Assembly: GCA_043812495.1 (NCBI GenBank)
Contig: JBDRMG010000020.1
Location: 1 to 47,932 of the forward strand
Source: Candidatus Omnitrophota bacterium
GTDB lineage: Bacteria > Omnitrophota > Gorgyraeia > Zapsychrales > JBDRMG01
DNA: 47,932 nt
Direction: 5' to 3'
The position numbers and the translations under genes are program-made. Shown piece by piece: positions 1 to 24,100 of the stretch; the stretch's first letter is position 1, and the number at the start of each line of letters is the position of its first letter. The notes beneath the pieces were generated by a model that was not told the origin of the DNA, did no database searches, and saw only the letters and a list, made by a program, of their open reading frames with translations.

Positions 1-141
1 AAGCCGAATACCTAACTCTACTACGCTCAAAAATTTCACTTCGTTTCATGTTTGAGCTTCGTAGAGTTCTACTTTCGCCTTTCCGCCCAAAATCTTTGAT
101 TTTGGGCGAGATCTCGCCCTGCTTTGCAGGGCGGACATCCC
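1..141. repeat. 141-bp terminal direct repeat, left copy
   Basis: Identical to 47792..47932; 141 is a common final assembler k-mer size. Confidence 0.97.
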
Positions 142-3100
142 CGTGGCAAGCCACGGGGTATTCGGCGAAGTAGAATAATACATCCAAAACCTCATGGCCA
201 ATCACACCTTTAGCAACAGAGAGATTGTAACTTATTGTATGGATATCTACACCTATCCTTCCAGCCGCTTCTTCTCTGTATCCATATATTTTCAAACGAC
301 CTTCCCCTGCTTTGTCTGTGCCTCCATAAACAATATCAAGATAATTTATCTGTCGGCGAGACAAGCCACAGCTTTCAAATATTCTTTTTCTATCTTCTTT
401 ATCTGGCGTTCTTTCATAAAACCTCCTAAGCAATGCATCAATCATGTCGCTAGGATAGACATCGGTTAATTGGTATGTTTTTAACATGTGCTCAAATAAA
501 TTAAACCCGGTCCTTGTGCGCAGATCCTCTTTGATTTGCGCTAACCTTTGTTTTTGCTCATCAGTCAAAATCTTTTGCATATCTTTATGCCGCCAAAATT
601 CATACAATTCTTCTATGCTCCAGGCTGAATTTGAATCTAATCTCTCCTGACAGACAGCCAGATAATGATCGATTCGTGCGCTATCCAGCCAAAATATACT
701 TAAGACCTTATTGATCGCGAATGCTGCTGTTGAAGTACGCATATGAAGCGACTTGGCAATCTCCACTCCAGTGTTATCTGCGGCAATCAATCTGATGATA
801 TCTGTATCGATATCCCTGGCTTCAATTTTGAACTTTATTGCTCTTAAATAATAAGGGTACAACTCCCTGATTCTTTCGCATAACCCTGGATATCGGCTAA
901 TGAGGGCCTCTAATTCTTCGGCGCGCAAGTTTATTAGATAAGCGCGCATTTTAGTGCAATCGCTTGCCAGAACTCTGGGATATTTCTTCGTGCCATTAAG
1001 CATAACGATTATTTGATCCAAAATATCAGGATAGGCGATGACATTGGGCGGGACTGGATCTAAATGATGAGGATAAAAACCTCTTTCGGGTATACGCTTT
1101 CTATCAATTCCTCCTCCTTGACGAATAAAGCGCAAGGCCTTGCGCTGGCCGCGGAGTATTTGTTTTCTCTTGTTAAAATCAACCTGAGAGGATTGGACAC
1201 CAAAAAGCATATGATACGCGCTATTTAATTTTTCAAACTCCGCCTCACTTAAGTCTCTAACGGCCTGCATCGCAAAGCCATTCACGACGCGGACATCCTC
1301 TTCGGCTAGGCGCTCTAATTTCTTCTTGAATTCTACAAACTCTTTTCTCATTTCAGGTATCCTAAAGAAACAGTTTAAATAACCGTATATTCCATCGCTG
1401 ACTATATCATTGTAATCCTCTGCCTTTAGATCCTTTAATGCACGGTTTTGATCGCTCTCGCTCTTAGGATGAAGTCTCTCAACAGCAAACCGGACAGCCA
1501 TATCCTTTATGTCTGTACCTTTGGATATCTCATCTAAACATCTTCTCATTCTTCCAAGAGTCTCTTCTGTGAGACGTTTTGTTTTTAACGCAGCGGGAGC
1601 AAGGCCAATGAGCTGCTTTATCCTTTCGGGATTCTTATCTCTTGCCAAATATAAAAGTTGGGCAAGAATATAATAGTCCTCTCTTGAAAGTGCAATCTCT
1701 TCCTTTAACTCAGACCTTAGTTTAGCGGCCGCTTTTACATAATCTCTAAGGCCTTTTTCTGTCTTAATCAATCTAACGACCATTCCTAAGAACACCTTAT
1801 ATAATGTCTTGTCTGCCATCCTCAGAGTTCCTGCCATTGATTTAAAACTATAAAGATTTTTATCAAAGATGCGCTCTAAGATCTTTGATTCCAAACCATC
1901 GAATTGCTCCTTGAGCTTAGCAAGATGCGCTGAAATATTTTCTCGTAGAATTCTTAAATACCACTTGGCCGCATATATAAGTTCTTTCTCGTCTATCTGT
2001 TGCCTATCTATTCTTATCATCCCTACGGTCACAATCGGAAATGCAAGCTGGCTTACAGCAAGTGCGCCAGCAGACCCATGCAATCCTGGGGCAAATATAA
2101 TAAAGATCCCAAGGGCCAAACCAAAAGCCGCGGTTATTGCAAGTAGTCTGTAATATATGTTTGACTGGAGATTGGAGATTGGAGATATCTCCCATCTGCC
2201 GTCTCCCATCCCGCCTTTGGCGAGGCTCGCCCGCCTCGGCCTTCGACCGAGTCGAGGCCGGGCCTCCGGCGGCTGCCATCTCTTAACTACTTGCCCTCGC
2301 GGCTTAATCATCTGCGTTAATCTGTGTCTACAATCTGCGTCAATCTGTGTTTCCACCGGCGCGCGGATGCGGATTTGCCAAATGAAGTAAGCTATCAATA
2401 TCATGGTCATCATTCCCACGCCCACAGCCACTGGCAGGAGGAAACAGCCGAAGCCAGAGCGCTCAGAGATACCTTTATCTACTTCGGATAAGAACTGACG
2501 TATAGGCATCGTATTCCAAACTTTTATATCGCGTCTCGCAAACATATCGATAGCTGAATCATATAAACTAAGGGGCTTATCAAGATTTATACCTCCTTCG
2601 ACCAAAAATCTTACCACCCTGATGATCTCATCGGTTAAAAGCCTCTCATAAGAAACTCCGTAGGCGCTCTCAGCTAGTTGTGATTTTGCTTTAACAAATT
2701 CTTTTTCATCTTCAGGCAGATCGATGCGCAGAAAACCTTCAGCTGAATCAGACGATTTTCCTAAAGAACCTCGCAAGCTTGCAGCTGCCCGTTCATCTCG
2801 ATTAAGGCGTTCGGTCATATCTACTTCTTTATCTGTATACTTGTACCAGTCACCAGCATGGCTTTCCTGAAACTCTCCTTCTTTATCAACTACATTACGT
2901 GGATAAGAATAAAAGGTTAACGTCTCATCATCAAGCCACAATACATCAAACACAACTAAATCATCTTTAGATTCCCCTACATCTTGAGTGAGTTCAATCA
3001 CTGCTTCTCGTGGCATAATAGGATGAAAGGCGCGAATATTTAGAATGAATCTTTTTGTCCTGACAATAATTACACTCCTCTTTGTAGCTTCGCGAGGACC

Positions 3101-6100
3101 CCATAATACAGGATGACCTTCCCTGCTTTTATCGTTCGGAAATATATAATATTGCGTTATTAGAAGCCATGCGGCATTAAGGATGATTGCATTTGTGGTT
3201 ACGCCCAAAATTTCTTTAAATATGCTTATGACTTCCTTGCCAAACTCATCAAGAATGCCTAGGCCAGGTCCAAAAGAATCAGGATAAAAATCATATGAAT
3301 TTAAGTAACGGCGTATACGATTATTCAATTCCTGCAATAATGCAATTCCTTTAATTATGTCTTCTGGCATATCCTCTACTCTTAAATTCTCCTCAGAGAT
3401 TGAACCTATACGCCGAAGAGCTCCTGTTACTGCGCTATAATCAAGACTGCCTAAATCGCTTAATAGACTATTTATATCCTTCTCTTCTTCTTTAAAAGAT
3501 TGTACTTCTATCCCCAACGTCCCCAACATATCTATCCTGGATACCTCTTCGCCTTTTGCATATTTCAAGATAGCAGTGGCTACCTCCCCAAGTTGCGAAG
3601 CGATATCTCTTTCTTCTATTTGTGCTGGCCATTGTCCTAAAAACACCAAGACTTCCGATTCATCTTGCTTTGATCCATACCTTTCAATCAGCTTCCCCAA
3701 CGCAGATCTTAAAATTGTTGTATAATCTTTGCGATCTTTATTTCCTGCTAGAAAGTCTTCTCCTAATGTCATAAGTAAGTTTACAAATGCTGGACACTTC
3801 GGTTCCTCCTCCTGGCTTAAATCCCAATCAAGATGCATCTGTAAAATTTTCACTACCCGCCTACTAGCTGTGAAGTAAACATTCCGCTCAAAAGCATTAT
3901 GCTGTCCTTTGTTTTCACGTAAAGTCTTTAATAAGTCGAATAGTTGATGTGTAAATTTATCGATACTCTGACTACTGGAAAGATCACCATCCACCATCCC
4001 CAACGCAGGCGGGAGGAAGGCGGGAGTTATGACGAGAAGTAGGGTGGCAGCGATTGGAAGAGCGTATAGGGTATAGGGTCTAGGGTATAGTTGAGAGCCA
4101 TAAGCCATTTGCCATATGCTATAAGCTAGTATGCCAAGTAAGACTAACCCAACAACCGCAGGCGATACCACAAAGCAGTCGACGCTCGTGGTATCTTCTG
4201 GTGCGGTAGGTGGCTTACTGTCATACCAAACTTTTATATACTCATCAAGACAAGAACTTATATACCTTATTGACCTAACCACTAATTCAGTATCTTCCTT
4301 AAATCGATTTACTTTATCCTTGAAAGCTGTATCGCCCAAAGCCAAAACTTTATCTCTTAATTCTTCAATAAAAGGAATCGGCATTTCCATTATACTTTTA
4401 GCTTGAGGTAACATCTCTAAAGGAAGCCCCAAATCCCCCCGTTTCCAAACTCCATTCACTAGACTCTTCAACTTCTCTGATAGCGTAGAAAGTTTGCCGA
4501 TCATTTCATTTATAGAGGGATCTTGTTGCTTCCATATATACTGTAATGACCTATCTTGAGCTAAATTAATCAGTCTTTCTAGGTTTCTTATAACCTCGAC
4601 TTCCCACTGCCAAAAAGCGATTAAAAATTCTTCATCTCCAGAGAAAAATTTCTCAGCTTGTTCAGATAATGCTCTAAGCCACACATCTAAAACAGTATCA
4701 AAATCTATTTTTGGTTTCTGGTCTTCTCCATCCACCATGCCCACCAGCCCCGCTGCCAGAAATGTTGCAAACATTTCTAGCGGGGCCACAGGCACCAAAG
4801 GTGCAATAGAAAGGGCTTCGGCTGCGCTCAGCCCAAGGGCCGCTGGGCCAATCTGACCGCTGATGGCTGACAGCTGATGGCTCAACAGGCCCAGCGGCCC
4901 AAGGATGATGACAATAAAACAAGAAGCCGTGAGGGCAAAACTCCATTTAATATAGCCTGCTTGCCCTCGCAGCTCGCTCTGTTTTCTGTAATCTGTTCTC
5001 TGGTTTCTATCGACATCCGGCCCCCTAATCATTCTTTGCCAAATAAAGAAAGCCGTCAATATTATTACTATTATTACCACAGTCTCTGGCAGGACAAAAC
5101 AACCAAGGCTACACATCGATGGAGAGGCGATATTATTATTAGTCCTAGCCCATGCTGGCGGGTCATGTTTAAAAGCTGGAACAGGCTCCCAAATGGCGCT
5201 TAATGGACCAAATGCTTCCACAAACCGTTCCAGCACTTCATTTCTTGGCCCTTCCCACCATCCTCTTCCTCTGACTCTAGGTTGAGTGGAAACAGGCAAA
5301 ATTCTAATCTCCTCAAAATGCCGTTCGCCTATATCAATGAAATAAAGTTCGCATTGAATGCGTATAGCGAAATATCTTCCGCTTTTTTGCCGCTCCTGAA
5401 TTGTTGCCAGCGGCGCGGTATCAAATGCACTGATTTCTATTCCTGCGTTTACTTCCGGATAACCGATTTCACGGGTGCCAAACAAAGTGATAATCCTTCG
5501 ATGGATTCGGTGAGGATATCTTCTTATATAAGGCAGGTTGAACCAGTTTTGCACTGCAGAGGCAGACGGCCATTCAAAAATATACTCTCGTCCGAGTGTT
5601 AGCGGCATTACGCGGATAGCATGTCGCGCTCCCTGGAAGAATCCGAAAATTGTGCCTGCGACGAGTTTGGATGTCTTATTTTCCCGGTCTAATGGTGGAG
5701 CGGTTTCAAAAATATCAAATAATCTGACGGAAGGATTCTTTCCCGCCTGATATGCTAATCTCAATATGACTTCCCCTGGAACGCCGTCTTCATTTTTTGC
5801 GCTTCGGCCTGGAGCTTCTTGTCGATTAACGACATCCATGCATATGGAGGTGTGAATTGTATCTATCCCATTATTTTCGAGTCTCTGGAATATCTGCTTT
5901 ATCAATAAATCAAGCTTGCCTTCTCTATGTCGATTTTTTACTTCTTCGAGTAAATGGATATTCTCCATTGTCAAACCTTTACTCATCAAGAATCTTAGAC
6001 GGCTGTTGAAAAATTGCGCTTTATCTATCACCCCGATATAATGCAGGTTCTCGCTGGAAACATTGCTGCCTTCCCGGGTCATTGTGGCATAGAAAGGCGT

Positions 6101-9100
6101 GCCGCTGCTATATCCGTCCATCCGGCCGCTCGTTCGGCTGGTCATGCTCCTGGCGTCTAGATGTGCATCCGCCACGACAATTCCCTTTCGGCCTTTGAAG
6201 GTATAGAAATTCGGATGGGCGAAACCGTGGTCGCCTCCGATGGCAAGAATTGTAATATGAGGATTTATTTTCTGTATTTCGGAAAAGACAGCCTCTACAT
6301 TTCGATAAGTGTCGGCAATGATGTCAGGATAGGGACCGCCATATTGCGAGGAGATCAATTTGTGCTTTTGAGGATTATATTCTGACACCTTAATATTGCC
6401 CAAATAGACTATGATTAATTCCCCAATATTCTCTTTGCCCGCCAAAGATAATTCAGCGCGATCAATAAGGTACTTTATAACCTCGTGAGGTCCGAATTTT
6501 GCCCCCGGTCGGCCAAGATTCTTAATGGCTCCCGTATCGTCTGGTTCCCCTATGATGACGATATCCGCATCCCCCAAGAGTTCACGCGTAGGTTGCTCTC
6601 CATCCCAGATATGAATTATTTTTGAAGAAAATTGTCCGGATTGCGGAACAACGAATCTTCTAAATACGCTATCCCCGGCTTCTTGAGCATCTCCTTTTTT
6701 GGATCCTGTGGATAGGAAATACCCTTCAAGTTCCCCCATGTTGTTTACAGTCTTATCGGCGCCGGCGTTATTAAGTGTTTTTTCTATTTGATAGTGTTCT
6801 GGCAACCTTAGTTTTCTAATATTTATTGTGGCCTTTTTTCTCGTAATCTCCTCCACGGCCCGCGAAACCAGCTCAGGACTAATAGCATTTGCAAAGCCGA
6901 TGAGGGTCAGGTTTAAATCAGCCTTCGCGCGCCTCATCAACTCTATTTCACTTGTAGCATCGGCGACAAAATAGAACCTCTCTATACCATGCTTTCCCCT
7001 AATATAATCAAATTGCGACTTACCTTTTTCTAATATGATCACCCCATTCTCTTTTCTTTCCCCATAGGCTATGAGGTATTGTCCAATTTTCTTGCCTAGT
7101 TCTGTTTTAAGCCATCGCTGGATATCTTCATCGGGATAACCAGAAATGAGAAACTGCCTTACTCCGCTTGCCTGTAGCTTCTTGAGCAGTTGCTCTGACC
7201 CTTTAAATAATCCAACACTTTCGTAGTCCCTCTCGATATATTCATTGTACAATTCGACGATATCATCCAATGACGCCAATATGCCTTGGCCGTGCTCCTG
7301 TTCGAATTTCATCAACTTTTGTCTGACATTCAATCCGGAATATTCAAAAAACTTATTGATCAGGTATTCCAGCGGATACTTTTGCCTATTTTCTTCTTTT
7401 ATATATTTTCTTGCGGCAATAGCCGTTGCCGTAAAAACAATGTGCATCTTTTCAACAAGCGTGCCGTCCCGGATATAGACAACGCCTATTTTATGATTTT
7501 CTATCCGATAAGGTTCTTCTTGATTCTCCATCGTTCCGATTTTGACCATCCCCGCCAAAGGTATCAAAGAGAAAATATGCAAGAAGCTAAGGGCCGCTGG
7601 GCCTAAGCTGCTTAAAGCAGCTAATGCTCCTCCACCAGCCACGGTTGAGGTAAGAGCAATCAGGCCCAGCGGCCCAAAGAAGATGATGATTAACCCAAAA
7701 ACCGCTATTGAAAGTGCACCAGCCGGCGCGCGAAAAACGAAAAGCGACCATGCGTTTGCTTTCTTTTCTGCTGGTGGGCCCTGTGCCCTTTTCACGATTA
7801 TGATCATGGCAAGAATCCCAAGGATCGCTAAGAAACCCAGCACCAGCAACAACTCCCCGGCAGATCCAGTCTGCCATAGTCTATCAAAAATTCCTGGAGA
7901 GGATAGACCCGACGGCACAGGGAACCCGATAGAACATCCGAGGGTAAGTCTCCCCGCCTTATGAAGTTTTCTAAGCATCTTAACGATCGTTACATGAAAC
8001 ATTCCTTTTCGGGTCAAAGTAAAATCCTTTGCTTCAATGTTTTCACGGATTTTGACGAGAAACGAAGGAATGTCCTCGTCCGTATAATTTTGATATGCGG
8101 CGACTGTTTCTAATATAAGCGTCACGACTGCAAGGTCTAGAATATTTGCTCTGCAACCGCGTTGAGGCGATTGGCGCGCTCTCATTCCCCATCTCCAGCC
8201 TTCTGATCCAAGTCCAGCAAATAAGCGCCTTAGGCGCATAGTATTCCGAAATGTTCCGAAGAAAGTCCCTGTCAGCCATCCGATGGCCTTGAAATCGAAT
8301 GCCTTTAATGCCCGGAATAATTGAATGAAGAAAGCACGGCGTTTTCCCAGGCCATCCTGAAACAATACGAATACCGTCTCAACAATATGCTTACAAATCA
8401 GCGACGAGGCCTTTGCCTCCATGTCCTTATTGATCTTTTCTATTCCAATGTTCACTTTTTTCAGGTATAAATATATGTATGAGACCACAAGGGACTCCAG
8501 AAGAGATCGAGCAACGAAGACGCAAGGCCATCGCTTTGCTGGAGCAGGGCAAGAAGCCATCGGAAGTAGCCGAAGAATTGGGAGTAGCCCGGCAGACGAT
8601 AAGCTGGTGGAAGAGAATCGTCCGGGATTACGGGAAAGATGGCTTGAAGTGTCAGCCCCATCCGCATCGCGAGAGTCAGCTATCTTTGAAGCAGAGACAA
8701 AAGCTCCAGGAACTTCTCTTGCAGGGTCCTCAAGCACACGGGTACGCAGACCAGTTGTGGACGCTGGAGCGAATCGCGAAGGTAATAAAGAAACATTTTG
8801 GAATCGGCTTTCACCCAAGTCATGTCTGGCGGATATTACAAAAGCTGGGGTGGAGTTGTCAAAAGCCGGAGCGAATCGCTCTCGAGCAGGATCACAAGAA
8901 GGTCGAAGAGTGGCGAAAGAAGACCTGGCCGAGGTTAAAACGGGGGAAAAAAGGTACTGGTCTTCATTGACGAGAGCGGGTTCATGCTGCAGCCCGTTGT
9001 CCGTCGGACGTGGGCGCTGCGGGGACAGACGCCCATTCAGCGTCAATCCCAGAAACATGATCGACTTTCGGTTATCAGCGCCATCAGCGTTTCTTCCAGC

Positions 9101-12100
9101 CGCAAGAAGTTCAATCTTTACTTCACCATCCACTCCGATAACATTCACTCCCTCGAAGTTCTCCGATTTTTGGAAAGACTCTTGCGAAAAACTCGGGGAA
9201 AGATTGTCCTCATCCTTGACGGTTGGAGAGTTCACAAGGCCAAGATCCTCCGGCAATTCTTCCAGGAACATCGTGACAGAATCCAGATTGAATGGCTCCC
9301 GCCCTACTCTCCCCAGCTCAACCCTGTGGAACCTGTCTGGAGTCATACCAAATACGCTGATCTGGCCAATTGGGCTCCTGCTGATGTTGCCAAACTTCGT
9401 TATGGCGTTCGCGTTTCGCTCAAACGTACCTGTTCCAAGCAAAAGCTTCTCAGGGCTTTTTTCAAAACTTCCGGCTTGGAAATTTGATTCTGATTCTTGC
9501 TTGAGGGTCGCTGTAGATGAGTTCATGGATAATCTTGGTCTATTCATATTGGTTAGGAAAAGGTCAATAACTTGGGTTCTGAGCTGTATCATTCTTCTTT
9601 TTCTTGGAATTTCCTCATTATCCAGAAAATCCTGAATGGTCTTTTTCAATTCATCACTTATCCTTGAGAGGTCGCCCTGCATCGTGGTTAAGTTGTCTCT
9701 CCTGATCTGCCAGTCCCCCTCTTCCGTCTTCCTGTCCACATAGCGGTCTAAGATGTCCCCGAGAGTCTTTAAGGATCGCTTAATTATTTTTTCTACGTCT
9801 TTCGTTGCCTCTAAGAGCAATAACAATCCTTTGGAGACTTCCTGGAATAATTTCTTCTCATGGGCTGTTTTAATTTCTTGCATTTTTGCACGGACTTCTT
9901 CGATCTCTTCGCAGACTTGATTCAGCTCCCTGTTGATTTCGGCGCACCGTTCGTCAAATATTCTTCTTGAACGGATACCGGAGAATCTTTCTCTGAAGTC
10001 CACATGCTTAATGGTCACATTAAGACCTTTAGCCCCCGATCTTATTTGCTCTATACGCTCCTCAAAAGAGACAATGGCGCGCTCCCTGGCTGTTTGTATG
10101 TTTCGATCAATGCTGTTCAATGCACCGGATAATGCCTTGATCGCGGCGTTCACGCAACCGGCGCTTTGCTGATGGGGAGTATTTTCAAAATCACTTATTT
10201 GAGCCTCCAGGTCTTCCGACAACCTTTCGACATTCCTGATTTCTCCGTCTTCTGCCCAGTCCTTGATTCCTTGCAATCTCCGCGCCAATTCTTCTGCGCG
10301 CGTTCTGAATTGCTTCAACCGGCGGGCCGCAAGAACCTCGTTCATGGGTTTTTCTACCTGATCAGTGTCTTTTTTCTTTCTAGGAGATCTGCGATTGACA
10401 ACAACTTCGTGGGCCGCTTTCAGAGCCAGTTTCAGGTCAGGGTTTGGATCTCCATCTTGAAACAGCTCCTCGGGTCTCTGGTGATGCGGATACAGCTTGG
10501 AATAGGGCTTCCATAAAGCTTGGTTGCTGACAATCAGCAGGCTCACTTTGATATACTGAATCGCTGTTTTTGCTTTCCCCATATACTGCATAGAGCCTTC
10601 ATAACTACCGACGCCTCTATCGCCGTTGAGTTGTTTTATCTTCAGCTCTGCCGATTTCCCGATATCTTCCCGCGGCGCATCAGCCGCAGAATCCAATATG
10701 ACAAAGACGCCTTTCCCGTTCCCTGCCGAATAATTAAGAATTTTCATCATCTCGTCTTCGTCTTTAAGTCCCTCAACGCCAAAGTGTTCAGTCAATAGAT
10801 GGAAAAGTAACGGCCTTGGTTTTATTTTTCTATGGGAGTGTTGCTGCCGTTGTTTGATTTTCACCATACCCACGACAAAGGCAAGCATTATCAAGCTCAA
10901 CAACCATCTCCACTCAATTCCTAAACTTTCAAAGCCCACAAATAACGGCGCAACAAGAATCTTGCAATCGCCTGCTTCTAATCGGTCTTTGATGGATATT
11001 TGCCCGGCATCCACCATGATTTCATTATCGCCAAATTTCGCACCCTTCTCTTCAAGATAACACTCTAAAGAATGCGGGTTCGATGCCCTTAAGATCACGC
11101 CGATCATAAACGGCCAGTAGTCGATAGAGTCAAAAATAGAACAACCGCTTCCCGGCATTCTTATCCGGGTTGTGCGGATGTTTTGAAATTGTCTCTTACG
11201 AATGGATGAGCAAACCGGCGTTTCCGTGGAAAGATGAATAATGTTCTTCAGGTGGGAACTATTGATCGTGTCTCTTTCTGAGCGCATTTTGCCGTCAATC
11301 GCCACAATGGTCGAGACAGGATAATCCTTTTGCTCGATGGCCTGGACCCAAAGCTCAAAGGCTTCCTGGCAGCAGAGTACAACAATATCCTTTGAAGATT
11401 GTGCATAAGGATCATCCTCGAATTTCCGGATAAGCTCTTCAACGAGCCTGTTTTGCAAAACGTAGTTTTGTAAGAGATCTTTGAAGATTCTTATGGGCTT
11501 AAACGGAATGCGGCTTTCAAATAAAGGAACAGGATGGATGCGGACATGTCTTTTGAGCAAACGGACAAACGGTACCATATCATTGGGCAGACCCGGACCA
11601 TAGTTGTCAATGCCATTCGTGACGGCATAGGACGTTTTGCGCAAAAATCCTGATGGGACGAATCGCTTTTCTTGAAGAACCCTCTCAAGAACTGCCCACT
11701 GCTTAAGATCACGGAGACATTTCCTTGCTTGTGGTGTATTGATGCGAGCGAGAATATCTGCCAAATGGTGAGCATAATCGGCTTCAACTGCGTATGCCCA
11801 AAGGAACATTTCCTCATCACAGATACGCCCGACTAATTGATCACCATAGGCAACAAGGCTGTTTTTGACTTCCTCAAGTTCTTCTTCTGTACGCTCTCTA
11901 AACTTTCTGCCCGTGCGCTCTTTGCCAAAGGACCGAATCATATGAACAAGGGCAAGCATTAATTGATCCATCGCCTCATTTGTCCTGATTGCGCCCAAAA
12001 GCCTCACCGCAGCGATCCGTTGTTGTTCTTTGGGATAAGTCATCACGGCATACATGGCCCGGTCGAGTTCGCAAAGCGCATCTGGTCCCATTGCGCTCAG

Positions 12101-15100
12101 AACGCTCAGCGCTTCATCCTGCGGAATTTTACCGTCAGCAACGCTTTCTAAAAATTCACCAAAATCAAATTCTTCTTCCTGGTGATCCCCGGTTGACACA
12201 ACTCTTAGCGCAACAGCTAACATCGAAAAAGCCATGATCATCATTAAAAAACCTGTGCCGTCGATGGCAAAAACCGAATAATAGATAGGCGAATCCTTAT
12301 GGGCTGTTGCGGAGCTGAAAATCCATTTTGCATCGATTCCGTCTCGGGTAAGTAAGCGTAAACGGCCTCTGGGCCAGAGAACCTTGTTGAGTTCCTGGAT
12401 AACCTTTCTCTTCTCTGACCTATCAAGAAGATACCAAAGGTAATTGAGAATCAGCAAGTCCGCCTCCTCAAGAAGCCCGGAAAATTCCAAAGACGGTATC
12501 TGACCATGGATTAGCTGGATATTTTTCTGATAGAAAAGAAGATTCTGATTAATCTCCTGCATGGCGTTGAGGCGCCGCATAATTCCCTGTACATCCAAAA
12601 TATGGCCCCTTGTTAAAGCTGTTAATATATCAAACCCTTTTGCGAGCCTGAAACTTGCCAACCGGAAGATGTCTTTTCTTTTTTCAACGCCGACCAGCTT
12701 GAACGAAAAATTACGGAAATCACTGACCTTGGCCTTCACTATTGTTTCTAAAATCCAAGCCCAGCTGACGACCTCTTGACCAAAGGCACAACCCGGCACT
12801 AAAATTGTGACTTGCCTTTCTCCTTTTTTCCTTTTCTCATGTAAGATTTCCACAATGAGGCGAGTAAACTTGTTTTCAAACTCAGGGAAACGCAAGAAAC
12901 AACTTACGGAGTTTCCGATCAATGCGAAATGATGAGCGGCGAACCTGGCCATATCCAAGATCAAGGCACCGCTCCCGTCAATGAAGGAGCCCAAAAGATC
13001 TTTATAGTTTCCTCCAAACCTTTCTTCAAAAATTTGCGTATAACCAAAGCTCCTTAAGAGGTCAAAGGTCCCCATGCGAATATCCATCCCCGACGTGTTG
13101 AAGTTTTCGACAAGCGTAGCTGCATGATGATTAATCCTGTTGTAATGAATTAACTGAAATTCATCCCTATCCTGACGGCTAATAAAATTCTCCGGATTAC
13201 CCGTTTTTTTCCATTCTTCAAAGGCCTCTCGGTAAGACGCCTCCTGCGGATTTATCCCAGCGCGATAGACCAAAAGAACAAAAAGGAGCCCAAGCAGCAC
13301 ACCCCACTCACCTAAAATGCTCTCCAGATTAACAAGGGATAACACATCGAGACAAGCTACAGGGTTGGGTTTTGATGAGATTTTTTCGCAAATCATTTTG
13401 GCCATCAGGTGATAATTCGGCTGAAATCTCATGCCTTCAAATTCATAGCCTTCGATCTTTGATGTTTGATAATAGTTAGGAACTAAAATTCGAAATGCTC
13501 GTACATTTTCTGTATTAATAGGCCCGATTCTATTCATATGCGGAACAAGCCATAATCCAAAATAACTTATGCTATTCATGCTATTCACTTCTTCGATTAC
13601 AAATCGATCTGTATCTATTGATATTAAACAAACTATATATTTGAGAGATCCAACTCTTTTGATAACATCAACGTTACCTGCTAAACCTGTTTTCGTTTTG
13701 ATGGTTCCTGGTGATTGATATTTGGGCGCAGCAAAGAGCTTTTTTGATAAGCTGAAAATTCGCAAATAATCATGACAACCAAATGAGAACTTATGATCTT
13801 TTATAAACGTGGTGGCAAGAGAGGTCTTACCGCTTCCAGAAGCACCCAGAAGAACCATAGTTTCCCCTTGCGGCGTAAAGATAAGATCGCCATAAGCATC
13901 ATCACATTGATAAAGATCCTCCATAATCGCAGGGAATCGACCATGAAGATCTTTTACTTTCCTGCAAAAATTTGTTGGCAAAGAGGAAGCCGGATGGGAA
14001 AAGTCTATATAACAACCTACTACCGATACTCTATGCTCAAGATACAGCGGATAGATTTCATTCAAGGCTTCAAAGAATGACCGAATCTCTTCTGGGGAAT
14101 GTTCGCGTCGATTTTGCACCATGGCTATGCCAAAAACCAAAAATCCAGCCGCAAGGCCAATCAGCACACCCCACTCACCCATCACCCCTTCCAGGCCGTC
14201 TGGCAAGAAAAATCCAATCTCACAACGACTTAAAAGCCCGTCCGGATCATTAGGATCTATGTAGCCTGGAAGCCGATTCGTCCTGGCCATGACATTTAAT
14301 TGAGGATCGCCAGGACACCTTTTCAACGCTTCTCGCAAAACCTCTTCTTGGGCTTCTTTAGGGCTGCCTCTTCTGCGAAGGACAGTAATGAGAAGCGTCC
14401 AGAATATTGGATCATTGCAAAAGCGAGGATCTTTCACTTCTTCTCTGAGGTTCGCGCTGGCTTCCTCAAAGCGACCAAGAGCGATTAATGCCTGGGCGCG
14501 TTGGCATCGGAATGCGCCATCGCCGGCATTGTGATCAATATCCTTATCGAGATATTGCAAGGCCTCTTGGTAACGTTCCATCTCCATTAAAATATCAGCG
14601 CGCTTTGAGCGAAAGAAATCATCATGCGGCAAAGAGTCAATCATGATATCTAAATATTCTAGGGCTTCATCGTTTTTGCCCGATTTGCGTAAGATATTAA
14701 TAGTGCTCGATAGTATCTTTGAAAATATTTGTGATTCTTCGTCAGAAACGTGAGTGACAGCCTCGGCTAAGATATAAACAAGCTCTCTTGTGCGGCCTCT
14801 TGCCTCATAGACTCTGCCAAGTAGACGGTAATAGATGGATGTCGAGGGCGATTCATGAATCGCTCTTCTCAAGAGGGTAATGGCCTCTTCTGTTTTTCCT
14901 TCTTGATCCATCACTTTGATCACCTTGGCCAGAAAGCCCCGGAATGTATCTCTATGCGGATAAATTTCTGCGGACTCCTTCGCTATATCCCAAATTCTAT
15001 TGTAGTCGCCGTCTCGCCCTAATGTATTGATCAAAAGACCTCGGTTATCAACATCTATTTCTTCAATAAACTCATGATCATTCTCTAACGCGCTTTGTTT

Positions 15101-18100
15101 CATCTTTTCAGCTTCAGCAATGGCGCTCTCGAGCACGCGTATAGTATCCTGAGGACGCCGTGTATAATTGTAATATTTTGCAAGGTGTCTATAAACGGCA
15201 AGACGCACAGGATCATCCCCTGCCTCATCCATCGCTTTGTCTAACATTGTCTTTCTTGTTTCTGGGTGGTTTTCCATTGCGGATCTTTCGAGTAATTCCA
15301 TGACGCTATCTCTTATGACGAGACCGACCATGACAAGGGCCATTGCCGCCATTTCCCATCCACCAAAGGTGATAAAAAGACTATGCTGTCCTGGTTTATT
15401 TTCGGGCGCATCAGCTGTGTCATCAGGCTGATGAGAAGGCCGGGCTCGTCGCTTTCCTATAACTTGTTTCGCCAGCCGGCTGATGAAAAGAGCGCCCAAA
15501 GCGATGATACAACCGCAAATGAGCGGATGATAAAAACGGGTGGAAATATCCGCAAGATCGGAAACAACGACGTCACTGGCCAACCAATCCCTCGTAGGAC
15601 CGATAAAGATATATTCGCTAATACGCGTCAAATATCCGCTGATGCTGATTCCCAGCGCGAGATGAAACAGAATGCGGCCCGGGCGATTCTTTATTGTGAA
15701 TAACTTCATGAACGCGACGGACATGCTGATATAAATGGCATACAGGATCAACGTGGATAATCGATCAAAGGTTTGCGGATTGACAATATGATCCAGGGAA
15801 ACATGGCCTCCTAAAATGTGAATAATATGCTTAGCGAGAATACGGTAATTCTCGATAACGGTGTGATCTAAAGCACCTGTTCCGTCCCCCGGTTGAGAAA
15901 TATGGACAGTGGCGGGAATCATTATCCAAACATAGATTTTGAAAAACCAATCGACCATGGCGGGAATCAAGGCGGCTGTCATGAAAATTTTCGCGTTGCT
16001 GATTTCAGATTTGATTTTTCCTAATGCCGCAAGCACCGACGGCGGCGCCCGGTCCGCCATCCACTTGGCAATGGTCCGCCTTAAAACAATAAAGAGAGCG
16101 GCCAGAAGAACGGCCCCTGCGATTAACCCCGTCTCCCATGCGCCCAGAGCCAGGAGTTGACTTATTCCTGAATTCCGGGAAGATCCCTTTCGGCGTGGTT
16201 TGCTCGCCTCGATCCGAATACACATACTCCCGTCAGAGAACCGCACCTGATAGATATCCTCCGGTTGAACGATAAAACCGACGGCGATGAGTTCATCGAC
16301 AATCGTTTTGGGGCAACCGATTTTGCAAACTTGATTGTCTATCTCCGTGATCCGTAATTGTCCGCCATCGACAAGAACGCGGAATACTTCCTCAAAGAAT
16401 TTCCGCCTCTGCTTAGGATTTAAATGCGCCATTATTTTTGTCGCTTGTACGCGCTGAACGCGTCCATCGTCAAGCCCTGGGAACTCATAGTCACCCTTCA
16501 CCGCCATAATATCGCCTGCGTACCCGCCGGACATCTCTCTGTCCTTTTCTTGGCGCCGCAATTCTTTGAGGAGACCCTCGGCATAATCAATCAAAACACC
16601 CAAGACATTTAATGCCGGATGGTTTTCGTGAATTCCTTGACCGAAATCTCTGATTTCATCTTCCTGAATGGCTCTATAATCTCTGATTTCATCTTCCTGA
16701 ATGGCTCTATTCTTTCTCTTAGCCGTTTGAATGACCGCTTTCAACTTTAAGATCCGTTCACGAAGGTCCATATCTTTGTTTTCGGCGATATAAGTAACCG
16801 TTTCCCTGAAGAATTCGTAATCACCGCGGTAGCGGTCAATGGCCCTGGCCGCTTTCCCGTCCGATGGCCCTATCAGCGCGAGAAGAAACTCAACAATATG
16901 CCCGATTGTTCCCATGGAAATCGCGAATATCCATGGGAAATACTGAACGATCAGCCGGATGACAAAATGCTTATCGCCGGGATGCGTGTTTCCATACATG
17001 AATACGCCGATGGCGCTCGCCGCCAAAAGAATTCCTGCCGTGGCAAAAAACCGATGGGTCCTGACAGGCGCCCGGACGGCACGAATGCGCTGGCTCGCGC
17101 TTGGCAGAAGAATGCCTTTCCGTTCATTGGCCTCCTCTATTCTCCATGCGGTCATAATATGGCTCAGGCTATGGATAATCGGTATCACACCATTGACAAT
17201 GCCTACCAAAAGACAGCCTACAAGCAACTTAATAGGCGAAAGTTCCGCGGGATAGAATCTATATAGAAAGACCAGGTTCGCGTAGTACGCAAATTCCGCC
17301 CCTATAAACCACATAGCAACGAAAAGAATCTCCCGCAAAATTTGCCGGGTATCTGCCCAATAATGATTACTGATGTATCCTTTCTCGTGCAATTGATGAA
17401 GGCGACTATTCACTTGTTCTTGATTCTTCCGGTACCAGACGCAGAGAAACAGAACAAGTGTTTTTCTAACAAATCGGCTGAGTCTGTTTTCTGGTTGTTT
17501 TTCAGATGAAAGTTTCCTGCCTGACGCCCGCACCGTGCCGATCGCTAAAGCTAAGAGGCTAAAGATGATCCATATTCCGCAATCACCAACGACCGGCATA
17601 AGAAGATTGAACTGGCACGGCTCGCGCTCTATTTGTTCAACTCGACCTTGTGCCAAATTCTTATGTAACAAGAAGGCATTATGAAAACAAAGCAGGAAAT
17701 CTAGCTTGTCTATGTCGACTTCTCTTAACCACTTGAGATAGGCCTGAACATACTGCGGATTCAACACGCGCTGATGAGGATTTTGTAAGACGCGCTCATG
17801 GGTCGCGCGAACAGCGCTCATCAGAGTCTGCCCGTATATTTCATCTCCTTTATCGAGGGTCGCCTGATCAATATTCAAGAGTTCTCTTATGCGCCAAAGT
17901 GTATGATTGATTGCATTTCGATCCTCTAAGAAACCATCCCTAAATTCACGTTCTTGGAATGTGATTGTTCTGGTATTGGGAACGCAGTTGATTCTTCCGT
18001 CGATATCATGCAAAATCGCCCGGCCTTTACGCAATCCCACATTTCGCTCAGCCACGGCATCCCCGCCGGTCTGGCCTCCGACAGCCCAAAGCGTCCCCAT

Positions 18101-21100
18101 TTTTATGGCGATACTACGCACAATACTGAAATATGTCTGTCGGACGACTTCTTTATTTTCACTGAACACCTTTGCAAGATACTCATCCGTAAATCGATAG
18201 AGTGAAGAATCAAAATCGGGTTTTTTATAACGCAGGAGTATTTCTTCGAAAATATTATCGATCAACCGTATAAGGGCATTGGCGCATTGTTGCGTATCAG
18301 AAACGCTGGAATAAACTTTGAAACCCTGTTGCTGCAAATAATGATTCCTCTCGTCTTGCTTTTCCAGGAGTGGACCTAAAAGATCTACTCTCATGGCTGA
18401 AGAATGAGCGCAGATGAGTTGGCTTGGCTGCGCATGACGAAGAAATTTCCGGACATAATAATTTTTCTCGACACTTAGCATGAGGTCACGCATATCAAAG
18501 AGTTCTTTCCTGAGAATAACATTGAGTACAGAGTCCGTGAGCTGATAGAAATATGTCCTGAGATTCATCTCGCGCCCACAGCAAACAACGGAGAGAAGCT
18601 TTTTGATCCCTAAAGGAATACTGAGATCACGCGATTCTTCCTGCCCCCAGACCTGTTCAAGTAAATAAGCAAAACTCAGTCCGTTTTCCATCTCTGTCTT
18701 AAGGTAGCCTGCATCGGCTCCGTATTGCAACACGTGGGTTGGCGTTTGAGCATTTTCGACCAAAATTGGCCAATCCTCTCTTTTATCCCCATGCACACAC
18801 AATCCCGCTCCTCCGCAGCCTTTTAAACTTAATGAGTCGGATAAATAAAGGCGGCGGCTGGGCCGGATTAAATTATTCGGATCTAATCCCCAAAACACCG
18901 GCTCTTCCGAGGAAGGCTCCTGGCCCTTCCAGAAAGGTGTTCTGCGGTTGACGAAAAGAGCGGCCGGCCCGAAGATAAGCCACCGCGCAAAACCATTAGA
19001 CGTCTTATCTAAACGAGCAATTAACCTTTGTCTGTATGCTTCTAATTCGGGTGTTAAGAATTTCCTGGTATTGAGGGGCGATGCTCTGCCTTGATCAAGA
19101 CCTTGAATTTTGGTCTGAATTAAGTTTTTGTTCAAAGCCTCTTGAAGTTCGCCAATGATTGCATCAGCACTTTGATATTGTATAGGATTCTTATATGCGT
19201 TTCTAACGATGGACGCAACTTGCCAAACAAATTCATATTCATTTTTAGAGAGAGGTTGTTCATCGAACCAAGTTTCCGCAATCCTATATTCATTTAGAAC
19301 AACATGTTTTTCATCTGACAGCATGAGCATTCTTGAGAGAAGCCGTTTTAAAATATAGGTATTTTTACAGCCAAAAGTCCAGGACGAAGGTGTATCGTAG
19401 TCGCAAAGTTTGACTGTTTTTAACTCTTGATCAATAAGAACATTGGTTAAACTGTCATCCAATTGTCGGATACCATTTTTGTAGAGATGGGTGCGCGCAT
19501 CAGCAACTTGGATAAGGATGCGGACAAGGTCATAAAAAGACAATTTTCTTAAATCCCCGTCGCGCCAGGCCTGATGCATGTTTTTGCCTTCAAAAAATTC
19601 CATGACAATGTAAGGCCGTTTCCGGCCATCCACGTCAACGGAATTCATATGATCAAATATAACGACGCGCTTATGGCTTCCGGCGTTTTTGATAATTTTG
19701 TTCACGGTTTTCTCGTCAAAGTTCTTGCGTGCATCGGTTTTTTGAACTTTAACAGCCACGATAGATCCATCTGTTTTTTTGGCTTTAAAAACGATACCTT
19801 GGTTGCCTTCACCGATCCTTTCCATCAGCTCAAAACCCTTCTCACCTAAAGCCGCTTTGAGGAGCTCTTCATCTTCTCTTTTTCTGTTTGCATTCGACTC
19901 TCCTATTATGCCGAAAACAGGAAAGGCGAGAACCGATAAATGATTCCAAAAACTTAAAAGCGGCAGTCCATCAAAGAAATAAGGCACGGCCAAGAGAAGT
20001 CCCAGGACGGCCAGAGCGGCAATCGACAGCAGGATAAACATTCGTCGATGGGGAAGGGAATAGGAAAATGAACCCTGTTTTTTCTTTTTGAGTATAAACA
20101 ACACGTGCGTCGAATTGAAGATGGTATTGGGATAAATGCCGATAAATACGACCTTTACGACCTCGAAGCCGGCTTTCTCGAATCTCCTGATCCATTCCTC
20201 ATAGGTTTTGTGATTGCGCGCAAGCGGCATGTCTGCTTTGCCTGCCACCACCTGATTGTTGAACCAGCAGAGGACCGCAAGGACCTGTTTTTGTTCTTTG
20301 TCCGTCAACCGGCTGAATTTTTCAATCAAGCCATGACCGTCAAAGAGAACCTCGTTATAATCCGGATGGTCTTGGGGCAAGACACAATCCTCGACGACAA
20401 GCACAATGCCTTGATCCCTGGCAATGCGATGGCTTTCCGCAATCAGTTTGGAGGGAACATTTTTGCGCGCGTGATGAAGCCCTGCGTTGATGATAACAAT
20501 ATCGGCCCGGCGGTCCTTAACCGGAACCTTACTTTCGCGTGTTTGTAATTCAAATTTCAAACGCGGATCTTCATCTTCAAGGGAAATCTTTAACGGCCGG
20601 ATATCGGTCCCGGTATATTCGTAAACGTCTTTGACATTCTCGAGGATGATTCTGCCCAACCCCAAATCATCGCCGCAGCCGATATCGGCAATAACGCCAC
20701 CGCCAAGATAATCTTTTACCTTCTCTTGCATAACGTCAAAAGCGCTCTCAAGACGCTCCTGATCGCCCCGGGTTTGATAAATCCTTCCAAATCGCGAACC
20801 GGACTCGCGGAACGTGAATCCGGCTTCATAAATGGCGCTTTTTGCCTCTGCCAAGTTTCTCGAGCGGCTGATGATCCGCCATAATTTCATAGCCTCGTGT
20901 TCCGTCATGCCGGCCGATTGAAAATTGATGACCGTTGCCCTCTCGAGATATTCGACAATGCGCGGATTTTGAAAAGCGGACAGTATTTCCTGGTCCGCTG
21001 TTTTTCTGGATAAAATGATTTGGAGAATGATAAAAACAACTAAAATGAAAATGACAGTAACAAGAAGAATGGTGGAGAGGCTGAAGTCTGAAAGCTGCAA

Positions 21101-24100
21101 GGTCCCGAGATTCTGGAGAGAACCGCTGATGAGTTCCATGGGCGGGGCGTTGAACCAGGGCATGATATCCTGCAAGAACTCAAGTCCAAAGCCACTGCCT
21201 TGAGCTATAACATCCACCGAAGGCATCATCGCAAGAGGCAAAATGCAATATGTCACGTTTCCTTCGTCGGAATGACCAGGCCCTTCCGGGGTCGATGAAA
21301 GGATACGATTTTCAGCGTCCTTAATAATCTTTTCAAGATAATCAATAAGGGGCTGCATCACAGCCGCCTTGGTAAGGCCCTCTTTGCCTTCCGCAATTAT
21401 GTCTTCATGCGCTTGACACTTTCTGAGAATCTTTCTTAAATATTTGAGGCGATATTCGCTGAGGTCCAATGCAAGCGTCGTGTTGATTTCCTCCACAAGA
21501 TTATCGTATTCAATTTCGTTTTCACGTAACGCGCGTATACCAAGTTCATTGGAATCTTTTAAACAACCGATAAAGAAGATTTGTATTGCCATCGATAGAT
21601 AAACCAGCAGGCGCATCCAAACGGGCGCATGGCCCCATAAACAGATGGCATCAAGACCGAGAAGGGCGACAGCCGCCACGACATGGGGCTTGATGGGAGA
21701 CCGGATGATTTGAATCACTTCCTGCGCGTAAGGCAAACGGCGGTGGCTCTTCCTGATTGCTCTCATTGTTCTTAAACCGCAAACCGTTCTGCTTAGGACA
21801 AAGACAAGCGGCACCGTCAAGAGAAACAGAACGGTCATGCCCAGTATCGAAATTATAGTGACGGCCGAGCTCAATTCGAATTTTAACGGCGCTTCAATAT
21901 TGAAGATCCTTAAGAAACTGACAACTATAAAGATAACGGCCATCAACGCTCCATATCCAACAGTGTCCCATCTTCTTTCTTCTTCCCCTTGATAAAACCC
22001 AAGGTTGAAGAGCCATTGTGCGGGTAAATCTTGACATTCATTTTTGATCGCGCAAAGGCGGTTCCGCGCCGTGCGCCAATACTTGAGCGCCAGAGCAACC
22101 GCAATAATCAACGCCACTCCCCCTATAACAAAAGGCCAAACCAGCGCGTTGTTATTTTGCACATAGGGACAGTCCCCGCCCCTGTCCTCAAATGAGGCGG
22201 GGACTGTCCCTGTCTTCCTATCCGTGTTTTTCCGGGGGAATACGGGAACATCAAAAAGAGGTAAAGAAGACTCACTGATGTGGAGCGCTTTCAAGACCAG
22301 CCCCACGTCCACGCCCTGGCTTTTGAGCACGCCGAGCTCGAACGGTATGGAGTAAGCCGGCCAAGTCACCGAAGAATAAGACTTCGCCTCAAGATCAGCT
22401 ATCTTTGCAGCGCAATCAAATGATTTTCGATAGCGCTTAACGGCTTGCGCGGTATTTTGATTTTTGGCCTGGAGGAATGCTGCGGCTTGCTGAAATGCTT
22501 GATCTGCCATTAAATTAAGCCTGTCATAACAATCCTCACAATCTATGCCCAGAAGATCGCACTTGGATATAGCTCTTGCAGCTAAATTGGAAAATTCATG
22601 CTCATCTCCCGGCAGCAGACAATAAATCCATAGCCGGCTGGACAGATCATTGGATATTATTTTGAATTGACGGCAAATTTCAAAGATTATCAAAAAGATG
22701 TCTTTTTTCCGTTCCTCAAAAACGTCATCCTTTTCATAGAAATCTTTTACAGTGCAAGTCATTAATTCGCGAATTTCTTTTTTGTCTTTCTTTTGGAGTC
22801 TGGCTTTCCAGAAATCCTCCTGCTCGAGCATATACAGGACAAATTCTTTGACAATGGGCAAGAGGACATGCTCCCGGACAACATGGCCGATCCATCCTCC
22901 TTCTCTTGTTCTTAGATATTGTTTAAGATATTCTGCGCCGACGATTTGCTCAATATCGAAATTGATGTGTTCTGGGATGGCGTTAATATGGGGAATAAAA
23001 TAATAATTCAAAATCTGATGATAAAGAAGAATGAATTTAATAACGGACAGTCCTCTGACCTTCTTCGGATCTTTCAGGATTTCGCGGGCCTGCGGTGCCA
23101 ATATTCCCCTTGCGGCATCTTTAAGGATATTGGCCTGTTCATCAAGCCAGGCGAGATTCAAGATATCCGGAATCCTTTGCTTATTTGGAATTTCAACCGT
23201 AAACGTCGTGTCGTGCCCGGGGCCTTCGGTTTCGTTGACAAAGCCGATGTTCCAGTCCGTAACCCGGCATATTTTTTGAAATATGAATAAACGGCCTGTG
23301 TATAGTGCGTCTACGGGCAGGATATCTTGTTTCGAGGTTTTCTTGAAGAAAGCTAAATACAAGAGGGAAAGTCCGGCAAGGATGAGGGCAGCAACCAATC
23401 CTATGACAACCGCCGGCGGGGCGTTGGCCCAGGGCAAGATGTACACGGCCACAGAATCACCAGGTCCGCTTTGTCCACTTTGTGCGCAATCAAGCTGACA
23501 GATTTCTTCAACGATTTTATTAATTTCTTGGCTTAGCTGTTCTTGATCTTTCTGCTTTTTTGCTGAATCAAGATAGACACTAAGAATCGACTTGATGGAT
23601 TCGGCTACGGATGTGAAGGCGCGGATCTGGGACGGAGTGAATTGCGGTTTTTCCGGCGAACATCCGCTGCAATCGTCACCGTCTATTTTATTGCACGAAA
23701 GATTAGAAATACACTTTGTGCAGGTCGTAAGGCCGAGAGCCGAGGCCGTATTCATAAACCTAAGCTGAGCGATGAGGGATTCGGTTTTTGATAGGGCTTC
23801 TTTGATTGCGTCACCTGCTTGGCTGAATTCAAGACCCTTCTTAATGAGTGTAAGCATTGTTCTTAACGTGTCATTTAAATATTCCGGAGATTTAGGCAGA
23901 AGATTGGGTTCTTGAACTTTTTGTTGATAATAATTTTCCATCATCGTGCAAGAAACCATCTCTTTGAATCCATCGGTCGCATCCATAAATTCTTTTTTCT
24001 TATGGTCATACTGCAAATCTAAAACAATATCTGTGACCGGAAGATCAAATGGCACATTTTCCAATAATAGATCATCCCCGGTATAAGGACCTCTTATCTG

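Follow-up and report, generated by a model that had tools for sequence, protein, structure and literature searches.

An antisense IS630-family element in a giant Omnitrophota gene: the host frame probably stays open through properties inherited from the lineage of the element

Ambigrammatic narnaviruses carry a reverse open reading frame (ORF) over the whole RdRp gene; this full-length frame lies in register with the main gene, codons complementary to stops are avoided and the product is junk-like. Mobile DNA can also reside in genes without destroying them, as exemplified by inteins and by IStrons, insertion sequences (IS) fused to a group I intron as outlined in PMC4227781, which splice at the RNA or protein level. 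Closer still are the ShiLan domain and related "hidden" out-of-frame insertions of HNH endonucleases in phage DNA methylase genes (Arsenault, Gosselin & Gogarten 2025, PMC11855218), described there in outline as selfish genes within a host gene whose frame remains stop-free and is, without any splicing domain, presumably translated as an extra loop. Named members of the IS630 family, part of the IS630/Tc1/mariner superfamily, such as ISDra3 of Deinococcus radiodurans and the IS630 element of Roseiflexus, the latter reported to make its transposase by transcriptional realignment (PMC5009743), share, as far as those descriptions extend, helix-turn-helix (HTH) and DDE_3 domains, short terminal inverted repeats (TIRs), a TA duplication, a length of ca. 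1.1 kb and ORFs joined at an A-run with the element reported here. This element, labelled WIN, is located on contig JBDRMG010000020.1 (47,932 nt, analysed as a whole and termed the window) of the Candidatus Omnitrophota bacterium assembly GCA_043812495.1, a metagenome-assembled genome (MAG) of 1.94 Mb in 66 contigs with 90% completeness. WIN is inserted antisense into a giant ORF, which continues through it, and we consider it probable that the frame survives through inherited properties of the element after a recent insertion into a TA, no stops having been removed at the locus.

The comparison with these systems defines what is particular about WIN. As in the ShiLan insertions, the host frame is free of stops (0 in 380 codons) and no intein or intron family is present. 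However, the ShiLan insertion is, in the part of its description considered here, a homing endonuclease fixed at one site of one gene family on the same strand, whereas WIN is a DDE transposon on the opposite strand, comprises 380 codons, is polymorphic, uses any TA and has an open frame as a property of the free element. In contrast to IStrons and inteins, the WIN insert would remain in the protein. Unlike a narnavirus, WIN is a DNA transposon with an additional open frame on the sense strand, and its reverse frame is in register only with the orfB half of the transposase, because orfA lies in another frame. In the literature covered, to which subscription journals contribute poorly, no description of stop-free antisense frames in insertion sequences, of a comparable trait in any DDE transposon, or of IS read through by a host gene was found. 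A term search in two preprints on giant genes of Omnitrophota yielded, within the portions covered, no transposases in one and transposases only in genes flanking the giant genes in the other.

The features on which the analysis is based are as follows.
2..33664, − strand: giant ORF, 11,221 codons without a stop, open at the contig edge.
8430..9567, + strand: WIN, IS630-family insertion sequence of 1138 bp, antisense to the giant ORF, defined by TIRs, domains and the empty site.
8428..8429, strandless: left TA target-site duplication, flanking the left TIR.
9568..9569, strandless: right TA target-site duplication, flanking the right TIR.
8430..8449, + strand: left TIR, TTGATCTTTTCTATTCCAAT, consistent with the family tip TTGAYCTTT.
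9548..9567, + strand: right TIR, forming an inverted-repeat pair with 8430-8449.
8429..9568, − strand: insert into the giant frame, 380 codons (IDLFLTN...IEKIN) with 0 stops.
8421..9635, + strand: third sense-strand frame, an ORF of 404 codons, stop-free over the whole IS.
8475..8481, + strand: tandem starts ATGTATG, the first ATG leading into the third frame and the second into orfA.
8479..8970, + strand: orfA, 163 codons, HTH DNA-binding part of the transposase.
8942..8954, + strand: G5A6G2 run at the orfA/orfB junction, with the A-run at 8947-8952.
8939..9487, + strand: orfB frame, open from 8939 with the first ATG at 8984 (orfB 8984..9487), DDE_3 catalytic domain.

Over positions 8428-9569, the three frames of the + strand contain 11, 15 and 0 stops and those of the − strand 22, 0 and 17, the two stop-free frames being the third sense frame (+) and the giant frame (−). 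The latter is in codon register with orfB and one base off relative to orfA. Codons whose complements are stops (TTA, CTA and TCA) are not used in orfB but occur six times in orfA. The openness of both frames exceeds chance: in 1000 synonymous shuffles of orfA, 4.7 stops were expected in the opposite antisense frame and 5.4 in the third frame, with none observed in either case (p = 0.001 each). The TIR pair matches at 16 of 24 positions, and WIN together with one TA amounts to 1140 nt, corresponding to 380 codons.

WIN belongs to the IS630 family on the basis of its DDE_3 triad, HTH, TIRs plus TA duplication, and homology. The product of orfA matches HTH_33 (5.4e-20), HTH_32 (3.9e-11) and HTH_23 (1.8e-8), that of orfB PF13358 (DDE_3, 1.2e-28), and an alignment of 11 sequences shows no variation at D11, D94 and E118/E131 of the orfB-frame translation. 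By tblastn, matches were obtained in 347 plasmid records, where they carry the annotation IS630 family transposase or ISDra3; best identities were 35-41%. As the orfB frame contains the first catalytic aspartate (within IDESGF) ahead of its first ATG, an active transposase would need a fusion of orfA and orfB at the A-run. The orfB frame is +1 relative to orfA, and removing one A from the RNA would fuse both. In analogy to the Roseiflexus element, as far as characterized in PMC5009743, we infer that the two parts would be joined at the A-run by transcriptional realignment. A run of A6-A8 is found at the junction in all 17 relatives examined. Its length switches among A6, A7 and A8 even between elements 88% identical (L009 and L010), whereby orfB flips between +1 and −1 relative to orfA. 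In the A8 types L018 and L026 an open but meaningless frame over orfA is continuous with orfB and forms a single ORF of 343 codons, which gene callers would mistake for the transposase. WIN is complete and probably still mobile. No ribozyme or intron of an Rfam family was detected at threshold, a single sub-threshold chance match reaching 18 bits compared to a gathering score of 40; between 8200 and 9800, one promoter-like and one terminator-like site were found, not above the level of shuffled sequences.

These results bear on a preceding interpretation from the letters and translated ORFs alone (hereafter the sequence-only reading). A nested antisense IS630 with an intact transposase inside the giant ORF, including an intact DDE triad, is confirmed by the TIRs, the TA and the HTH and DDE_3 domains, as is the statement that the giant frame is in register opposite orfB and in another register opposite orfA, where several stops would be expected by chance. 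The proposed continuation of the same frame on both sides of the IS agrees with Pfam domains found upstream and downstream. The element limits of 8401..9540, however, had to be corrected to 8430-9567 by means of the TIRs and TA, and the giant frame, although indeed stop-free over the IS, is so for 380 rather than about 350 codons.

For the origin of the arrangement we propose the following scenario. An IS630 element would recently have been cut-and-pasted, in opposite orientation, into a TA inside a giant multidomain Omnitrophota gene. Two properties of the element would then come into play, namely the length of IS plus duplicated TA of 1140 nt, a multiple of three, and an antisense frame in register with orfB that is stop-free including the AT-rich ends and both TIRs; an insert of three-fold length (3n) with such a frame would allow the host frame to survive. 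The openness would be inherited from the IS630 subgroup and not acquired at the giant gene. With one open frame per orientation and a 3n length, roughly one in three insertions into a coding TA would be read through, so that no selection at the locus would be needed for an intact giant frame. The occupied allele should, judged from its sequence, encode a giant protein with a disordered insert of 380 residues between RTQV and KDMEAK. No Pfam family and no intein domain were found in the 380-codon insert. An AlphaFold model based on 41 aligned antisense ORFs has a mean predicted local distance difference test score (pLDDT) of 45, a predicted template modelling score (pTM) of 0.20 and 322 of 380 residues below 50, while the alignment of the 41 sequences contains only one invariant and six nearly invariant columns. 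The insert is thus predicted to be a disordered, floppy segment that would be kept in the giant protein, if this is made.

The recent age of the insertion is documented by an empty site. Logan contigs of four public runs (X1-X4) were compared with positions 7400-10600, a junction being counted when covered by at least 31 nt per side. A 261-nt contig of run X2 (public groundwater) corresponds to 8375-8427 followed by 9568-9775 with 0 mismatches and skips exactly 1140 nt, the joint being ambiguous by the 2 nt of a single TA. The search for an empty-site allele advised by the sequence-only reading was thereby successful, with an insertion length that is a multiple of 3. The two alleles differ by exactly the IS and one duplicated TA, which is the signature of transposition and not of mis-assembly, and the identity of the flanks over 261 nt leaves no time for a stepwise purging of stops at the locus. 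The WIN insertion is recent and polymorphic. A second X2 contig matches 9437-9570 without a difference before passing into unrelated sequence, indicating the same IS end at another place. An X4 contig shows nine differences over 9347-9570 (ca. 96% identity); six of them are listed by position, and introducing these six closes neither of the two open frames. In view of the empty allele and the IS end elsewhere, WIN does not show the recurrence at the same site of the same gene across relatives that characterizes homing. A query of 1180 aa (flank, IS and flank), intended to find an empty site in homologues, matched none of 167 other genomes of the order, and homologues of the flanks were found neither in these genomes nor among the best 150 of 442 protein matches described below. 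At the DNA level, WIN occurs at one place in its own genome, the window itself, and relatives are absent from 400 other genomes of the phylum.

The origin of the open frames was approached via relatives of WIN. A search with the orfB protein identified 4 loci in genome contigs and 31 in metagenome contigs, with relatives 40-56% identical in amino acids; no relative was found in viral contigs. L005, on an Anaerolineae MAG contig, was rejected as a false positive because it is a 1143-codon protein with nSTAND1 NTPase and WD40 parts; the partial matches L033-L036 were left out as well, and L028 ends at a contig edge. The number of orfB-like clusters at E<=1e-20 is 873. The relatives comprise several deep lineages, and WIN is 51-54% identical in nucleotides to every one. 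Of 31 relatives, 18 have a stop-free stretch of 300-381 codons, approximately the whole element, in the antisense frame that shares the register of orfB, and 19 of 30 have one of 321-421 codons in the third sense frame. L013 reproduces the WIN architecture with orfA, orfB in +1, a third-frame ORF of 354 codons and an antisense ORF of 357 codons. As a side aspect, the tandem start ATGyATG at the beginning of orfA is present in WIN, L007, L013, L020, L008 and L014 (GTG in L017), most relatives being alike, and is kept in lineages 52-57% identical in nucleotides.

Shuffling of synonymous codons by class of site, summed over 11 elements, revealed a depletion directed against stops. Third-frame TGA was observed 0 times in both the orfA half (20.5 expected) and the orfB half (20.6 expected), and antisense TCA opposite orfA 0 times (15.5 expected). 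Codon junctions of the type T|A that create a stop were found 4 times (31.8 expected), whereas harmless T|A junctions occurred 21 times compared to an expectation of 15.9, and the remaining frames, serving as controls, showed no stop depletion. The depletion is specific to stop codons. For a set of one element per deep lineage (WIN, L013, L020 and L021, with nucleotide identities of no more than 65%), 0 stops were counted in the third frame against 29.3 expected, and 1 in the antisense frame opposite orfA against 16.6. Not all IS630 elements behave in this way: in ISDra3 (GC fraction, i.e. guanine plus cytosine, 0.60), a copy on an Isosphaeraceae plasmid (0.68) and one from Halocatena (0.57), antisense runs extend over only 73-117 codons and there is no long antisense or third-frame ORF, in contrast to the subgroup of WIN, which keeps both frames open. 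Since these members have a similar GC, composition does not explain the open frames. These data show that a large environmental IS630 subgroup keeps the antisense and third frames stop-free by selection at synonymous sites, and this selection acts on the lineage of the element, not on the present locus. Compared to ambigrammatic viruses, the reverse frame is likewise open and under synonymous-site selection, but it is not in register throughout, being one base off opposite orfA. Within the phylum, orfB relatives are rare, being present in 7 of 400 other Omnitrophota genomes with identities of up to 43%, and six of these seven IS630 loci lack the open-frame trait.

Against this background, the explanatory part of the sequence-only reading has to be revised. 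Its claim that stops were purged here is contradicted by the empty allele with identical flanks and by the open frames in relatives. Host selection to keep the downstream modules translated is not supported either, as the property of the element and the 1-in-3 chance account for the observation. That only a compatible insertion survived is possible, but it is not implied, given that about one in three random insertions would be compatible. The reading had named free-standing copies with the same open antisense frame as grounds for regarding the read-through as fortuitous; relatives open over about 350 codons do occur in other organisms, but selection in their lineage argues against a pure accident.

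Why an IS630 lineage keeps two additional frames open may be explained in different ways. The best surviving alternative, which we regard as possible though doubtful, goes beyond the proposed inheritance of open frames in that it assumes the clade of the window to be selected for end-to-end translatability in either orientation, rendering gene insertions often harmless; such elements would be a non-splicing counterpart of inteins and IStrons. In this case the IS630 subgroup might be termed "ambigrammatic" and, in the clade of WIN, would be open through both TIRs, of 3n length and translatable through a host gene in either orientation. Consistent with this idea, the AT-rich non-coding ends of WIN (8430-8478 and 9488-9567) are stop-free in both long frames, with shuffle P values of 0.039 (antisense frame), 0.055 (third frame) and 0.0057 (both), and the TIRs are read as TTG ATC at the left end (third frame) and A|TT GAC at the right end (antisense frame). 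Moreover, among 23 elements whose TIRs score 16/24 or better, 15 have a 3n length of IS plus TA, although these elements are related and not independent. In the relatives, however, the long frames run into a TGA, TAA or TAG within the TIRs, usually the TGA of T|TGA at position 2. In clade 1, whose TIRs contain such stops, no host frame can pass, yet the interior openness is still selected there and in the other DNA relatives.

Protein databases give a similarly divided picture. A query in which the 380-aa insert was bordered by 400 aa of flank on each side was compared with 1.84 billion representative proteins and matched 442 cluster representatives at E<=1e-3. The best 150 of the 442 align to the insert only and not to the flanks; many are 330-420 aa long and none exceeds 476 aa. 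The first eight matches looked up are singletons on contigs of 1.2-2 kb, one being termed "hypothetical protein" and seven unnamed. In favour of end-to-end translatability, the right repeat is the point of entry for three of the five nearest antisense ORFs (P0003, P0004 and P0006) and also for P0054, and of about 26 database ORFs that extend to the left end, about 14 run past it (among the matches listed); P0004 and P0006 read TIDLFLTN... or T-IDLCITK... via the right repeat and ...NVNK or NINK via the left repeat into the flanks. These ORFs, however, could be found only because they are open, so that no frequency of end-to-end openness can be derived from them. Likewise unfavourable is the lack of long host proteins with such a segment, not only among the best 150 matches but also in a weak search for proteins of 666-2000 aa with an embedded antisense segment, which found none. 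The third-frame translation gave no match to predicted proteins in a word-based search, which is weak on low-complexity sequence.

Rather unlikely, in our view, is that the frames start inside the element and are translated only to keep ribosomes on IS transcripts, thereby preventing Rho-dependent termination or tuning the initiation of the transposase, the peptide sequence being irrelevant. This possibility would be in line with selection on stops only and with a junk-like, non-folding product, six of six tested antisense ORFs having no Pfam family. The relatives are better explained in this way than by host read-through, as the ORFs extend from just inside one TIR to the other. Start codons are also suitably placed: in WIN and the five relatives with tandem ATGs specified above, the third frame has an ATG located 4 nt ahead of that of orfA, and 9 of 17 listed elements have ATG or GTG in the antisense frame at position 47, counted from the right end. 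On the other hand, no clear Shine-Dalgarno sequence was recognized, and the antisense ATG derives from a histidine codon of orfB and may be incidental. WIN itself lacks such an ATG at the corresponding place.

It appears improbable that the antisense and/or third-frame ORFs are real accessory proteins on double- or triple-coding DNA. Their openness across lineages 51-65% identical in nucleotides, their plausible start codons and the hundreds of such ORFs reported by gene callers would be compatible with genuine genes, but the low pLDDT and pTM of the model, the missing Pfam family, the single invariant column in 41 sequences and a composition typical of off-frame translation speak against it. 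Similarity among antisense translations is expected anyway because the transposase codons are conserved. A misplacement of the IS into the giant gene during MAG assembly might be suspected from the 66 contigs and from the occupied junctions, which no contig of the four runs spans with at least 31 nt per side, but is very improbable in view of the transposition signature in the allele difference and of record 1 of run X1, which after 159 nt of flank extends across the left junction by 19 nt (the TA and 17 nt of IS) with 0 mismatches, albeit below the 31-nt rule. Least credible of all is a purging of stops after insertion or a domestication of the IS as a linker of the giant protein, since the shortage of stops and the in-frame downstream domains that might suggest it are outweighed by the empty allele with identical flanks, the identical IS end at another site, the intact TIRs, TA duplication and DDE residues, the same open frames in unrelated hosts, and the lack of benefit from removing stops singly until the last is gone.

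The proposed survival of the host frame through inherited properties of a recently inserted element has to be weighed against several observations. An end-to-end open frame was found in none of 22 relatives with defined ends; full openness at the DNA level is so far confined to WIN, and at the protein level to the database ORFs with their ascertainment bias. A complete free-standing copy of the exact WIN element was not obtained, the nearest DNA relatives being those of 51-54% nucleotide identity. No contig in the four runs bridges an occupied junction with at least 31 nt on both sides, and the occupied allele is supported by the MAG assembly and, weakly, by record 1 of X1. Finally, coverage by run X3 is confined to contigs at 9732-9880 and 9908-10055, none of them on the IS, and is thus silent on transcription of the insert.

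The host gene itself is a mosaic. Upstream of the IS, the giant-frame product contains methyltransferase, TPR, protein kinase and HEAT domains according to Pfam; on the downstream side, the 1000 codons following the IS encode a HAD hydrolase and a domain of the arginase family (8.9e-27). The presence of Pfam domains on both sides in one frame indicates that both halves are genuine coding sequence. The two X3 contigs, 151 nt each and from a groundwater metatranscriptome, match the giant gene just upstream of the insertion (9732-10055) with 0 mismatches; presence in an RNA library is no proof of transcription. An upstream ORF at 33576..47840 (4754 codons, with EamA and PHP domains) overlaps the start of the giant ORF (33664) by 89 nt, on the same strand and in a different frame over 33576-33664. 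A frameshift or an indel in the assembly may have divided what is one still larger gene, or a programmed shift may connect the two ORFs. The GC of WIN (ca. 0.50) is above that of the contig (ca. 0.44) and that of its relatives is higher still (0.55-0.75), which suggests a recent arrival from a more GC-rich donor.

As judged from the sequence, WIN would be a natural case with both alleles at hand in which a 1.1-kb transposon adds 380 codons without truncating the gene. Annotations of giant genes can hide intact mobile elements, and a continuous ORF is no proof against an insertion. Antisense translations of IS630-type transposases account for at least 442 cluster representatives in public protein collections, where they are unnamed or termed hypothetical. 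The explanation for the intact giant frame shifts from the host to the element, an IS630 subgroup selected to keep two extra frames open. The new aspect is this "ambigrammatic" IS630 subgroup at the family level, for which damage limitation, suppression of polarity and overlapping genes are testable alternatives. If damage limitation applies, a DDE transposon would restrict its own damage without splicing, and this would pay off above all where genomes are gene-dense and dominated by giant ORFs.

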